Positions 2,389-50,451 of a stretch of DNA of 64,000 nt are shown here, one piece after another. The notes beneath the pieces are model-generated. The model saw nothing but the letters and a program-made list of their open reading frames with translations. It was not told the DNA's origin and searched no databases. Source of the DNA: Sphingomonadaceae bacterium (lineage in GTDB: Bacteria; Pseudomonadota; Alphaproteobacteria; Sphingomonadales; Sphingomonadaceae); the NCBI GenBank assembly GCA_029268145.1, contig JAJUHA010000010.1, positions 2,055 to 66,054 of the forward strand, written 5' to 3'. Each line of letters starts with the position of its first letter. Position 1 is the first letter of the stretch. A program made the position numbers and the translations under genes.

Positions 2389-6917
<4,529 letters not shown>

Positions 6918-47127: not shown

Positions 47128-48534
47128 TCAGATGGCGCGCAGCGCCGGGGCGGCCTGTTCGGGCGCCAGCATCAGCTCGGTCAGCGCCCACACCAGCGCA
47201 TCGGCCCGGTCGGGCGAGCTGCCGGGGCCGCGATAGGCCCCGCCGGTGATGAGCCCGCACAGCTGGTCCTCGAGCTCGGGGAAGGGCCGGGCATGGGCCA
47301 CCAGCCCGCGGGCATAGAGGGTGGCCACAGGTTCGGCGCGCGCCACCTTGCCGACGCTTGCGCGCACCGGCTTCAGCGGCAGCCTGCGGTGGCCTCCGGC
47401 CTCGAGCACGCTCTCGACCATCCGGCCGCCCTGGTTCACTTCCACGACGATGCAGTCGGCACGGTGCTGGGCATGGGCGTCGACCACCGCCTTCGCCCAG
47501 TCGTCGGGCGTCGCGTCGGGCACGCTCCGGTCCGAGAGCACATAGGCCCTGCCGCGCGTGTCGAGCCCGGCGACGATGATGCCGCAGGTGCCCGGGCCGG
47601 CCGGCGGGTCGACTCCCACCACCACCCGCGCCAGCTCGCCCTCGGGCGCCATCCGGCAGCGCTCGAGCGCGTCCCGGCTCCACAGCGCGCCCTCGATCCG
47701 CTCGAGCAGCTCGCCGGCAAGCTCCTGCCGGCCAAGCGCCGTGCCGCCATAGCCCGCCTCCATGTCGGCGAGGTAGGAGGCGGGCAGGTTGATCCGGTTG
47801 TCGAAGGTCGAGCCGCGGGTGAGCACGACTCCCTCCATCCGGGTCAGGCTCCGCAGGAAGGCGGTCGGGCGCGGCGTCGTCGTCACCACCACCCGCGGCC
47901 GCACGCCCAGCCTCAGGCACATCCGCAGATTGTCCCAGGCCTCGCGCGGCCGGCTCCAGGCGGCGATCTCGTCGCACCAGGCGGCATGGAACTGCGGCCC
48001 CCGCAGCGCGTCGGCTTCGCCGGCCGAGAACAGCGTCGCCATCGCGCCATTGGGCCAGTGCAGCTCGCGCTTGGAGCGCAGGAACAGCGGCCGGTTGCCC
48101 TCGACCGCCGTGCCGAGGATCCCGGATTCGCCGCGCACCATCACCGCCTCGGCGTCATGGAGGGTCGTCCCCACCAGCGCAATCCGGCAGCCGGGCGTGG
48201 TCAGCGCCTGCCGGTTCACCCACTCGGCACCGGCGCGCGTCTTGCCGAAGCCGCGCCCGGCGAGGATGAGCCACACCGCCCAGTCGCCGGCGGGCGCCAG
48301 CTGTGCCGGGCGCGCCCGGAACCGCCAGTCGTTCAGAAGCCGCCACTGGTCCTCCAGCGGCACGTCGGCAAGGCACGCCGCGCGCGCCTCGCGCGGCAGG
48401 AGCGCCAGGCGCTCGATGAGCGAAAGCCCCGAGCGCGCGCCACCCGCCGCCACGTCCCCATCGCCCACAGGCCGTTCTCCGCCGCGACCCCGCCGGCTCC
48501 CCACCGGATCCGAAAAGGGCGCCGCCGCGGACAT
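47128..48534 (-). CDS. GTA g2-like terminase large subunit
   Basis: 468 aa from ATG 48534. Walker A LILAGRGFGKTRAG; nuclease-half motifs VGVDPP...IIVAG. The track ORF starts at TTG 48672, but that leader has poor GC3 and a W/R-rich sequence. Confidence 0.9.
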   Translation of the reverse strand: MSAAAPFSDPVGSRRGRGGERPVGDGDVAAGGARSGLSLIERLALLPREARAACLADVPLEDQWRLLNDWRFRARPAQLAPAGDWAVWLILAGRGFGKTRAGAEWVNRQALTTPGCRIALVGTTLHDAEAVMVRGESGILGTAVEGNRPLFLRSKRELHWPNGAMATLFSAGEADALRGPQFHAAWCDEIAAWSRPREAWDNLRMCLRLGVRPRVVVTTTPRPTAFLRSLTRMEGVVLTRGSTFDNRINLPASYLADMEAGYGGTALGRQELAGELLERIEGALWSRDALERCRMAPEGELARVVVGVDPPAGPGTCGIIVAGLDTRGRAYVLSDRSVPDATPDDWAKAVVDAHAQHRADCIVVEVNQGGRMVESVLEAGGHRRLPLKPVRASVGKVARAEPVATLYARGLVAHARPFPELEDQLCGLITGGAYRGPGSSPDRADALVWALTELMLAPEQAAPALRAI

Positions 48535-48668
48535 CGGCTGACATCCGCGGCGGCGACAGGAGCCCCGGCCGGTCCGGATTCCAGACGGGCCAGGGCGTTC
48601 GGGAGGGGAGGCGCTCCAGACCCAATTCCGGAGCGTGGCCGAATCTCTATACCATACCGTCACGCTTG

Positions 48669-49172
48669 TCAAGCATAGATTTGACCATTTTGGTTCTCAT
48701 AATGCGCCGCAAGCCGATCCAGCGCCAGCCCCAGCACCAGCTTGCCCGATCGCACCGGCCAGCCGAGGCCGCGTTCCGCCGCCTCCAGCCCCTCGCCGGC
48801 GCACACCACGCGCCACAGGATGTCGGACAGCCCGGGCCCCACGGCATCCATCGCGGCGTGAAACCGTGACCGCGCCGCCGCGCTCCCCAGGGCCTGGGCT
48901 TCGGCGCCCCGGCCGCAGCCGCGGTCGCGCGGCGCCGCCAGATCCCAGCGCATGGTCACCCGCGCCCCCAGCTGCGCGGCGTGGTGGTCCCGCCGCAGCC
49001 GCTCGCCCGCCGCGACCTGGCGCCCGTCCAGAAGCCTGCGCCGGAACAGCCAGTCGAGCGGCGATTCGTCGAGGTTCACATGCACCAGCTGCCGGTCCAC
49101 CGCGTCCGCCGGCGCCAGCCGACGCCTGCCGATGGTCCGATTCGGATACGCCTTCGGGTCGATCACCTGCAT
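48669..49172 (-). CDS. hypothetical protein at the g1 (small-terminase/regulator) position of the GTA cluster
   Basis: 167 aa; ATG 49172 is preceded by GAGAGGAG. The AGERLRRDHHAAQLGARVTMRWD motif and a C-terminal HTH-like segment (GWPVRSGKLVLGLALDRLAAHY) possibly indicate a DUF6456-type protein (from memory, unverified). Confidence 0.55.
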   Translation of the reverse strand: MQVIDPKAYPNRTIGRRRLAPADAVDRQLVHVNLDESPLDWLFRRRLLDGRQVAAGERLRRDHHAAQLGARVTMRWDLAAPRDRGCGRGAEAQALGSAAARSRFHAAMDAVGPGLSDILWRVVCAGEGLEAAERGLGWPVRSGKLVLGLALDRLAAHYENQNGQIYA

Positions 49173-49198
49173 CTCCTCTCGACAGTCCCGCAGTCATG

Positions 49199-49248
49199 TG
49201 CCACATTGGCAAAACTGTAGGAAATAGCCTACCCAGTTTCACAGTTTC
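49199..49248. promoter_or_regulatory. low-GC divergent promoter/operator region with repeated motifs
   Basis: TGCCA-cat-TGGCA inverted repeat (49199-49211). AAACTG (49212-49217) faces two direct CAGTTTC copies (49234-49240, 49242-49248). About 47% G+C over 49191-49250 by my count. Confidence 0.5.
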
Positions 49249-49299
49249 GGGGACGGCGAGGCCGGGCGGGCAAGCGGGGGATCAGGGAGGCGGAGGATC

Positions 49300-49863
49300 A
49301 TGACGTCACGTCTGCGCGAGCTTCGCAAGGCCCGTGGCCTCACGCTCGCCGAACTCGCTGCCCGCTGCGATCCGCCGACCACTGCAGTCACCATCGGCCG
49401 CCTCGAGACCGGGATGCGCCAGCTGTCGCTGCCCTGGATGGAGCGGATCGCCGCCGCGCTCGGGATCGCCCCGGCGGACCTGCTGCCGTCGCAGTCGGCC
49501 TCCAGCCTCCCGGTCGCCGCCGTCCTCGGCCGCGACGGCCCGGTCGCGCCTTCCGCCCCGCAGACGGCGCCGGTCCCGGTCCCGGTCGCCGGCGCCATCG
49601 CGCTCCTCGTCCAGGCCTCCGCCGGCGACTATCGCGCCGGCGACACGCTGTGGCTCGAGCAGCTCCCGCCCGAACGTTTCGCCGAGGCGGTCAACACCGA
49701 CGTGCTCGCCCCCCGGCCGGTCGGCCGCTTCGCCTTCGGCCGGCTGGCCGCGGTCGAGGGCACGCGGCTCCAGATCCTGCCGCCCGCGCCGGGCAGCCGC
49801 CAGCTCATCGTCGCCGACCCGCCCTGGCTCGGCCGCGCCATCACCCTCGTCCGCCGCCTCTGA
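49300..49863 (+). CDS. XRE/cI-type HTH transcriptional regulator with a LexA/S24-like (apparently non-catalytic) C-terminal domain
   Basis: 187 aa; ATG is preceded by GGAGG. N-terminal LRELRKARGLTLAELAARCD...IGRLETGMRQLSLPWMERIAAALGI is a Cro/C1 HTH. The C-terminal part (GDYRAGDTLWLE...FAFGRL...LQILP) is beta-rich, and no GDSM motif was seen. Confidence 0.75.
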   Translation: MTSRLRELRKARGLTLAELAARCDPPTTAVTIGRLETGMRQLSLPWMERIAAALGIAPADLLPSQSASSLPVAAVLGRDGPVAPSAPQTAPVPVPVAGAIALLVQASAGDYRAGDTLWLEQLPPERFAEAVNTDVLAPRPVGRFAFGRLAAVEGTRLQILPPAPGSRQLIVADPPWLGRAITLVRRL

Positions 49864-49896
49864 TCCCCCCGCCCCCCGGGGCCGCCGCCGGGCCGC

Positions 49897-50451
49897 CTAC
49901 AGCCGCGGCAGGGTCACGCCGCGCTGGCCCTGGTACTTCCCGGCCCGGTCGGCATAGCTCGTCTCGCACAGCCCCTCGCCCTTCAGGAACAGGAACTGGC
50001 AGGCGCCCTCGTTGGCATAGATCTTCGCCGGCAGCGGCGTCGTGTTCGAGAATTCGAGCGTCACATGCCCCTCCCACTCGGGCTCCAGCGGCGTCACGTT
50101 CACGATGATTCCGCACCGGGCATAGGTGCTCTTGCCGAGGCAGATGACCAGCACGTCGCGCGGAATCCGGAAATACTCGACGGTCCGCGCCAGCACGAAG
50201 GAATTGGGCGGAATCACGCACACGTCCTGCCGCCGGTCGACGAAGCTCGCCGCCGAGAAGGCCTTGGGGTCCACCAGCGCATTGTCCACATTGGTGAAGA
50301 TCTTGAACTCGTCGGCCACGCGCGCGTCATAGCCGTAGGAGGAAAGCCCGAAGGAGATGCAGCCCTCGCGCCGCTGCGCCTCGACGAAGGGCTCGATCAT
50401 CCCCCGCGTCAGCGCCTGGGTGCGGATCCAGCTGTCCGGCATCACGCCCAT
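49897..50451 (-). CDS. dcd: dCTP deaminase
   Basis: 184 aa; [37 protein letters not shown] and [14 protein letters not shown] are classic Dcd motifs. Confidence 0.95.

Follow-up and report, generated by a model that had tools for sequence, protein, structure and literature searches.

A 64,000-nt stretch of the genome of a Sphingomonadaceae bacterium (contig JAJUHA010000010.1, positions 2,055 to 66,054; referred to below as the window) contains the structural genes of a gene transfer agent (GTA). At the head of this cluster two genes diverge from a short spacer: one codes for a 187-aa helix-turn-helix (HTH) protein, the regulator that is the subject of this report, and the other, on the minus strand, leads into the GTA genes (Table 1). 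A first reading of the window (the original prediction) had placed the regulator gene at 49300, with an oppositely oriented gene beginning 127 bp away, and the open reading frames (ORFs 49300..49863 and 48669..49172) bear this out. Following the divergent gene on the minus strand are genes for the large terminase (TerL), portal, protease and capsid (ORF list and Pfam), and the other flank of the regulator is occupied by dcd, a UPF0262 gene and genes for sulfate assimilation (Pfam and NCBIfam).

The gene across the spacer had been described as the first gene on the GTA strand, and it is not a structural gene. Its product matches DUF6456 (PF20057, E value 2.7e-43) over model positions 2-135 of 136, the domain under which homologues of GafA are annotated (PMC9638019, PMC9765227). 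GafA activates the GTA of Rhodobacter directly, and its C-terminal half, which corresponds to GafZ in Caulobacter, has the DUF6456 annotation too (PMC9632790). The start of this gafZ-like gene also moves: GTG 49166 is more likely than ATG 49172, the start given originally, because the GTG has a Shine-Dalgarno (SD) sequence, AGGAG, 6 nt upstream and yields an N-terminus (MIDPKAYPNR) that matches those of the relatives; the ATG directly abuts the SD. Searched by tblastn with four GafY-like proteins, neither the window nor the Sphingomonadales loci yielded a GafY-like partner, and among 759 GafZ homologues an adjacent GafY is missing for 265 (Gozzi et al., PMC9632790).

The regulator matches two Pfam models of Cro/C1-type HTH domains, HTH_31 (E value 1.7e-11) and HTH_3 (1.1e-9), both above the gathering scores, and a Cro/C1-type HTH is all that Pfam and NCBIfam detect in it. 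Its homologues number more than 4600, and the best matches (89-91% identical) come from Thermaurantiacus, to which the high-G+C sphingomonad of the window is evidently close. An AlphaFold2 model computed with 26 homologues has a predicted local distance difference test score (pLDDT) of 91 and consists of a five-helix N-terminal bundle (residues 5-61) followed by an all-beta domain. The recognition helix in the model is formed by residues 29-37 (AVTIGRLET) and includes, in its first turn, Val at position 30, where most relatives have Gln. Compared with the sequences of the PDB, a profile of the regulator family matched the HTH domains of the 434 repressor, C.AhdI and SinR, and in the same search there was no match for the C-terminal domain. 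Structural comparison of the model with the PDB by Foldseek gave the lambda-186 hybrid repressor (7jvt_D, E value 9.7e-6) and LexA (3k2z_B, 5.6e-5) as the best full-length matches, and the beta domain matched the C-terminal domains of lambda cI (1kca_A, TM-score 0.58) and Mycobacterium tuberculosis LexA (6a2s_A, TM-score 0.62, root-mean-square deviation 3.0), with TM-scores of 0.58-0.62 normalised to the target and root-mean-square deviations ranging from 3.0 to 5.1.

The residues on which self-cleavage depends are missing from this domain. In an alignment with LexA, cI and Caulobacter RogA, the window family shows a gap at the G-x-S-M segment, which forms the loop of the nucleophilic Ser, the column of the catalytic Lys is occupied by Gly147, and the segment that matches the strand of the cleavage site reads PVAAVLGRDG, which has no Ala-Gly. 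The catalytic dyads are S119/K156 in LexA and S149/K192 in cI. Peptidase_S24 (PF00717) gave no match to the regulator at E values up to 0.1, and none to any of 36 family members at E values up to 1 (Pfam). The original description of a Cro/C1 HTH followed by a beta-rich domain of the LexA/cI S24 type with no GDSM-type site is thereby confirmed by sequence and model together, which agree on an XRE (Cro/C1-type) HTH joined to a domain of LexA/lambda-cI fold lacking both the Ser-Lys dyad and the Ala-Gly site. With neither the Ser nor the Lys nor the Ala-Gly site in place, the RecA-dependent cleavage for which a test had originally been proposed is unlikely, self-cleavage in general is very unlikely, and the degenerate S24-like domain probably serves only dimerisation or signal sensing.

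A layout of this kind had been thought to fall outside the known control of GTAs, and it does not. RogA of Caulobacter (213 aa) likewise joins an N-terminal HTH to a LexA/cI-like autopeptidase domain without the key residues, and it silences GTA production by binding the gafYZ core promoter at GGAA-N4-TTCC repeats (Gozzi et al. 2022, PMC9632790). The XRE proteins CdxB and RtrA/B also repress gafYZ (PMC13236601), and an HTH regulator upstream of gafA homologues has already been noted in Hyphomicrobiales (Sherlock and Fogg 2022, PMC9638019). RogA was absent among the 150 best representatives of an exhaustive protein search. For direct comparison its sequence was rebuilt by taking the ends of the gene from the oligonucleotide table of the paper and scanning genomes for a 27-mer, which led to a 213-aa ORF in C. 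vibrioides DSM 9893; this protein itself matches Peptidase_S24 (E value 1.6e-18, Pfam). A remote homology is indicated when profiles are compared: in a single comparison of the two families, hhalign aligned the window family with the RogA family over 140 columns spanning the C-terminal domain, with a probability of 90% and an E value of 1.5e-6. The regulator is read here as a remote homologue of RogA with the same architecture, apparently on a divergent branch and not an orthologue in the narrow sense.

The gene order around the regulator was compared among loci gathered by homologue look-ups, a scan of viral contigs and a scan of metagenomes, and linkage was counted over the 69 loci in which the regulator is full-length and 700 bp or more of upstream sequence is available. 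A DUF6456 gene is the divergent neighbour in 59 of them. Close relatives of the window (with Val at position 30) that carry the cluster all keep the order of regulator, DUF6456 gene, TerL and portal genes, so the adjacency of regulator and GTA, on which the original prediction had staked itself, holds in every one of them. The wider Sphingomonadales set is different, with TerL adjoining the regulator-DUF6456 pair in 11 of 40 cases. A search started from a family member of 32% identity reached genomes of the Hyphomicrobiales/Parvibaculales type (Pyruvatibacter, Rhodomicrobium and Phaeomarinobacter), and in all four distant loci from this group (L112-L115, about 33% identity, including Pyruvatibacter mobilis) the regulator diverges from an operon of a Bac_DnaA_C (GafY-like) gene and a DUF6456 (GafZ-like) gene, followed by sufE. 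The divergent linkage to DUF6456 spans regulators of 91% down to about 33% identity and several alphaproteobacterial orders. Since TerL is adjacent in so few of the pairs and the distant pairs stand beside sufE, it is the activator gene that the regulator tracks across orders, rather than the structural cluster, and control by way of the activator is likelier than a switch acting directly on the structural genes.

A truncated version of the locus occurs in Sandaracinobacteroides hominis (JADCUC010000004.1; L007, 1-4921), where the regulator-DUF6456 pair lies beside a GTA cluster from which TerL, most of the portal gene and the protease and capsid genes are gone, so that the tail genes (DUF2460, Phage-tail_3/Rcc01698_C and DUF2793) follow directly. 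A metagenomic contig (L008) encodes a regulator identical to that of S. hominis and has the full head module.

The spacer is low in G+C (46.7% at 49190-49249), as had been pointed out, but with a value of 45% at 48650-48709 it does not stand out as the AT-richest part of the surroundings of the cluster. The repeats noticed in it are all present, and they differ in conservation. The TGCCA-N3-TGGCA inverted repeat, called O1 here, is unique in the window and is conserved among relatives. Three copies of CAGTTT, one inverted (49212-49217, minus strand) and two tandem (49234-49239 and 49242-49247, plus strand), lie within 36 bp and make up three of the five copies in the window; the direct pair is arranged as CAGTTTC-A-CAGTTTC, and a GTAGG-N6-CCTAC palindrome overlaps the group at 49217-49232. 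Alignment shows that neither the CAGTTT repeats nor this palindrome occurs in Thermaurantiacus tibetensis (regulator 89% identical) or the other congeners, which carry a different short tandem, CCAGAGCCAGAG, in place of the CAGTTT repeats. Absence from the congeners rules out both as operators.

Table 1. Features of the regulator locus, with coordinates in the window (a point marks features without a strand).
Feature	Coordinates	Strand	Remarks
TerL (large terminase) gene, first structural gene of the GTA head cluster	47128..48540	-	Terminase_6N and Terminase_6C (Pfam); upper boundary approximate
Candidate promoter and leader palindrome of the GTA structural operon	48613..48672	-	conserved in the window and five relatives
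DUF6456 gene (homologue of the GafA C-terminal/GafZ-type GTA activator, 165-167 aa)	48669..49172	-	PF20057 match
Divergent control region between the DUF6456 (gafZ-like) and regulator genes	49173..49299	.	127 bp; becomes 49167-49299 with the GTG 49166 start
O1 palindrome TGCCA-CAT-TGGCA, TGCCACATTGGCA	49199..49211	.	perfect; only TGCCANNNTGGCA in 64 kb, 0.07 expected
Window-specific repeats	49212..49247	.	CAGTTT three times and GTAGG-N6-CCTAC; not conserved
TGTAGGAMA box, TGTAGGAAA	49216..49224	.	no other exact copy in the window; belongs to TGTAGGAMAG, an element found throughout the family
Regulator gene	49300..49863	+	187-aa ORF; SD GGAGG upstream
HTH DNA-binding domain, residues about 4-61	49309..49482	+	Pfam coordinates; helices of the AlphaFold2 model
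Linker and beta-rich C-terminal domain, residues about 67-187, S24 (LexA/cI) fold	49498..49860	+	Foldseek

What the congeners have in common in their spacers is the ribosome-binding region of the DUF6456 gene (CTCGAC...), the sequence TGCCAyAWTGG and a TGTAGGAMA box. This last element is an addition to those originally noticed, is invariant in the close relatives and has near-maximal information content in the wider set. Alignment of 77 unique spacers gave the consensus cTTGCCAy-N3-GG-N7-TGTAGGAMAG with constant spacing, O1 being always 17 nt ahead of TGTAGG. The TTGCCA part, which O1 overlaps, resembles a -35 hexamer and is conserved upstream of all family members, reading GTGCCA in the window. 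TGTAGGAMAG hardly varies among loci with a divergent DUF6456 gene. In eight of nine loci where the regulator has no DUF6456 neighbour it is degenerate, and there TTGCCA persists, a distribution consistent with TGTAGGAMAG being, probably, part of the promoter or a control site of the gafZ-like gene.

The length of the spacer varies on the side of the regulator. In the Thermaurantiacus-type loci the conserved boxes are set apart from the start of the regulator gene by a poorly conserved insert rich in G+C (25-190 bp; 49250-49295 in the window), which gives this gene a longer 5' leader. The distance from the TGTAGG box to the ATG is 64-84 nt in the window and two similar loci (L108 and L110), compared with about 40 nt for the majority of relatives; in another locus (L109) the spacer is about 100 bp longer still.

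A second palindrome, AACC-N5-GGTT (13 bp), is found in most relatives 24-30 nt before the regulator ATG and 31-33 bp from the TGCC site. Among the loci with Gln at position 30 it is perfect in 53 of 74 and has at most one mismatch in 68 of 74, against a background of 4 and 26, respectively, of 560, and it is kept even where the regulator adjoins unrelated genes. None of the 14 loci with Val30, including the window, has it. These carry TGCC-N5-GGCA, perfect in 4 of 14 and with at most one mismatch in 10 of 14 (0.8% and 10.5% of random 130-nt windows), and both palindromes share a CC-N5-GG core. The pattern is suggestive, and only that, of the conserved palindromes being the operators of the regulator, with O1 as the predicted operator in the window; within this clade O1 is the best candidate. 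The window as a whole has four TGCC-N5-GGCA sites (37060, 40999, 45043 and 49199), about the number expected from base composition, and so gives no sign of further operators.

The distant, Pyruvatibacter-type loci have a different palindrome of 17 bp, TTTACGTATTACGTAAA, between good, sigma-70-like -35 (TTGCGA) and -10 (TAAATA) hexamers of the regulator promoter, which is the classical layout for autorepression. Their spacers (L112-L115, about 3730-4000 in each locus) share a block that runs from ATAGGAACATAATACGAAC to GATTGCGATATTTTTACGTATTACGTAAATACCGGGGATAAG and includes the palindrome, and near the activator gene they contain a TAGGAA element, as does the TGTAGGAMAG of Sphingomonadales; the element recalls the GGAA half-sites of the RogA operator.

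A separate set of promoter-like sequences precedes TerL. Directly past the DUF6456 stop codon lies a conserved TTGACA (48672..48667); a gap of 15 nt separates it from TATAGA (48651..48646), beyond which come the conserved palindrome GCTCCGGA-N6-TCTGGAGC (48634..48613) and GCCTCCCCTCCC. The region coincides with the dip to 45% G+C. A strict sigma-70 scan rejects TTGACA-N15-TATAGA for its 15-nt spacer. The stem of the palindrome is invariant (five sequences), so covariation is uninformative and roles as RNA or as DNA are not separable. The listed TerL ORF of 514 aa begins at TTG 48672, which is the TTG of the TTGACA box itself. In relatives TerL has 435-449 aa and starts 160-190 bp from the DUF6456 gene; on the strength of these shorter, set-apart relatives the true TerL start would lie near 48450-48540, leaving an untranslated leader of more than 100 nt. 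The GTA structural operon probably has its own promoter at 48672-48613.

Taken together, the preferred interpretation, which we regard as fairly probable, is that the regulator is of the RogA kind, represses both its own gene and the GTA activator gene linked to it in cis, and is not induced by RecA-type self-cleavage. The binding specificity, the sign of regulation and the cascade that we infer would be as follows. A dimer of the regulator would bind the 13-bp palindrome O1 (49199-49211), which overlaps the regulator's own -35-like element. The gafZ-like gene has its ribosome-binding site only some 15-30 bp away, and with so little room its promoter would have to overlap the conserved block. 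One bound dimer could then shut off both genes. A signal other than RecA-type self-cleavage would lift the repression and allow the GafZ-like protein to be made, which in turn would switch on the structural operon from its separate promoter and leader (48672-48613). The regulator would thus repress the gafZ-like gene, and the gafZ-like gene would activate the GTA operon.

Several observations weigh against this interpretation. As to RogA, a BLASTP comparison with the regulator is not significant (E value 0.47), and the homology is drawn from one profile comparison and the fold. The RogA-type operator is missing from the spacer, where the one GGAA (in TGTAGGAAA) has no TTCC at a distance of N4; the operator sequences of distant homologues need not be conserved. 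The window lacks a GafY-like gene, so the activator side may differ from that of Caulobacter. The control region itself raises further points. A scan of 48500-50000 found no sigma-70 consensus promoter or intrinsic terminator, and the overlap of O1 with a promoter is one of geometry only. Across the wider family the left arm of O1 is much the more strongly conserved of the two, and O1 may be a mere -35 hexamer; the covariation of residue 30 (Gln or Val) with the palindromes represents a single evolutionary event. Concerning linkage, 10 of the 69 loci have a regulator with no adjoining DUF6456 gene, its neighbours being unrelated genes such as ArsR/SRPBCC, oxidoreductase or OmpA-like genes. For all family members the interpretation is built from sequences and models.

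The locus of Sandaracinobacteroides saxicola (CP059851.1; L005, 4834-5001) also departs from the pattern: it has no DUF6456 gene, and the regulator diverges directly from TerL. The 166-bp spacer contains a perfect TGCCATTCCGGCA and a TTGACT-N16-TTATAT pair facing TerL, and the right flank is not dcd.

Two promoter readings of the spacer fail. The spacing of TTGCCA-N14-TAGGAM is too short for a classical promoter, and TGGCAC of the minus strand, inspected by eye, was rejected as a sigma-54 element, since its distance to a GC element is wrong by one nucleotide in the window and variable in relatives.

The regulator might instead activate the gafZ-like gene, or act in both directions as lambda cI does at PRM and PR. 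A divergent arrangement with boxes common to both genes would fit either sign, TGTAGGAMAG is kept only beside the DUF6456 gene and could be an activation site, and the want of a good sigma-70 promoter for either gene is typical of activator-dependent promoters. On the other hand, O1 overlaps the -35-like element and does not lie upstream of it, RogA, the closest characterised analogue, and the other XRE proteins at gafYZ are repressors, and a cis-encoded repressor with a default-off setting is to be expected where production kills the producer. Activation therefore appears unlikely.

It is also conceivable, in line with the original prediction, that the regulator directly represses the structural operon. 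The spacer would then hold the promoter of the GTA, with the operon simply beginning at the DUF6456 gene. The close spacing and common orientation of the DUF6456, TerL, portal, protease and capsid genes would permit read-through, and the S. saxicola regulator, divergent from TerL across a perfect TGCC-N5-GGCA, would fit. Against this stand the separate, conserved TTGACA-N15-TATAGA and palindrome between the DUF6456 and TerL genes and the pairs that do not adjoin TerL (29 of 40) or that stand beside sufE in distant relatives, and such direct control is judged decidedly unlikely.

Slimmer chances are given to the regulator being an ordinary autoregulated XRE protein, or a relic of prophage immunity, that has no GTA role and owes its position to history. 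The 10 loci with unrelated neighbours would be explained, and the retention of AACC-N5-GGTT at such unlinked loci indicates that autoregulation alone can maintain the promoter region, but the linkage to DUF6456 has lasted from 91% to about 33% identity across orders, surviving changes of the other flank and the presence or absence of gafY and TerL, which a purely historical position would hardly explain. An SOS-type repressor inactivated by RecA-stimulated autoproteolysis, an idea prompted by the LexA/cI-like fold and by the link of GTAs to DNA repair in Caulobacter, has next to no chance of being correct given the deleted G-x-S-M loop, the Gly at the Lys position, the lack of Ala-Gly and the silence of Peptidase_S24 in 36 members.

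Beyond the preferred interpretation of a RogA-like repressor of the activator gene, a broader evolutionary scenario can be offered only tentatively, and we hold it to be possible more than probable. The regulator and DUF6456/GafYZ genes would together be an old cassette of repressor and activator, linked in cis, that was the original control unit of RcGTA-type agents, possibly as a domesticated remnant of the immunity region of the progenitor phage, and that was kept from Sphingomonadales to Hyphomicrobiales/Parvibaculales. The unlinked RogA of Caulobacter would be derived, the S24 domain would be a sensor of something other than RecA, and in the Thermaurantiacus/Sandaracinobacter clade the change of Gln to Val in the first turn of the recognition helix would have moved the protein from AACC-N5-GGTT sites to TGCC-N5-GGCA.

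Because making GTAs is lethal to the cell, control of the off state and its release are central questions, and to our knowledge a dedicated GTA repressor has so far been characterised in one organism, as RogA in Caulobacter. If the interpretation given here is correct, the GTA control locus of Sphingomonadales, and of many genomes of the Hyphomicrobiales type, could readily be spotted by its cis-encoded regulator gene. TGCC-N5-GGCA and AACC-N5-GGTT would be definite operator candidates and residue 30 (Gln or Val) a candidate determinant of specificity, and deletion of one small gene would be a simple genetic means of turning on GTAs in lineages without demonstrated activity. The current picture of GTA regulation would be extended by this and not changed. 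The kind of system is already known, through RogA, the XRE repressors at gafYZ and the HTH gene beside gafA homologues, and a limited literature search found no paper describing this regulator family at GTA loci. What may be new is the recognition of the gafA neighbour as a RogA-like family of HTH and dead S24 domains, the extension of the linkage to Sphingomonadales, where the pair heads the structural cluster in one clade, and the predicted operators.

Among known systems, lambda cI and LexA share with the regulator the two-domain repressor architecture, the C-terminal fold and divergent promoters with a palindrome over a promoter element. They differ in that the regulator has no Ser-Lys dyad, Ala-Gly site or Pfam S24 match, so that RecA induction is not expected, and in that its gene is a chromosomal one conserved across Sphingomonadales and not part of a prophage immunity region. 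CdxB, CdxA, RtrA and RtrB of Caulobacter (PMC10688885, PMC13236601) are, like the regulator as interpreted here, repressors of a GTA activator operon with an XRE-type HTH. They differ in being small (CdxB has 132 aa), with a short helical dimerisation domain, no S24-like domain and many genomic targets.

The nearest likeness in gene order is the HTH gene at the gafA locus of Hyphomicrobiales (PMC9638019). Distant members of the regulator family (L112-L115) stand in exactly that synteny, divergent from the Bac_DnaA_C gene, the DUF6456 gene and sufE, and the window gene is, to judge by this arrangement, the Sphingomonadales counterpart of the Hyphomicrobiales gene. That report mentions the neighbour only and gives no family, fold, operator or function for it, and the window differs in having no DnaA-like (gafY) gene and in the joining of the pair to the head of the GTA structural cluster.

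RogA (CCNA_00080) is the closest in kind, being alphaproteobacterial, composed of an N-terminal HTH and a catalytically dead S24-like domain, and tied to gafZ or gafYZ, by which an RcGTA-type GTA is switched on. It keeps a G-D-D-L loop, whereas the loop is deleted in the window family, and rogA and gafYZ (CCNA_01111/01112) have distant locus numbers, whereas the window regulator is divergent from the activator gene. Its operator is GGAA-N4-TTCC, in contrast to the TGCC-N5-GGCA and AACC-N5-GGTT palindromes conserved here as predicted operators. The promoter-like region before TerL in turn recalls the PgtaT promoter of Caulobacter, with its GafZ-binding palindrome and long leader. The pair of regulator and activator genes in the window is most likely the local version of the RogA off switch of Caulobacter.

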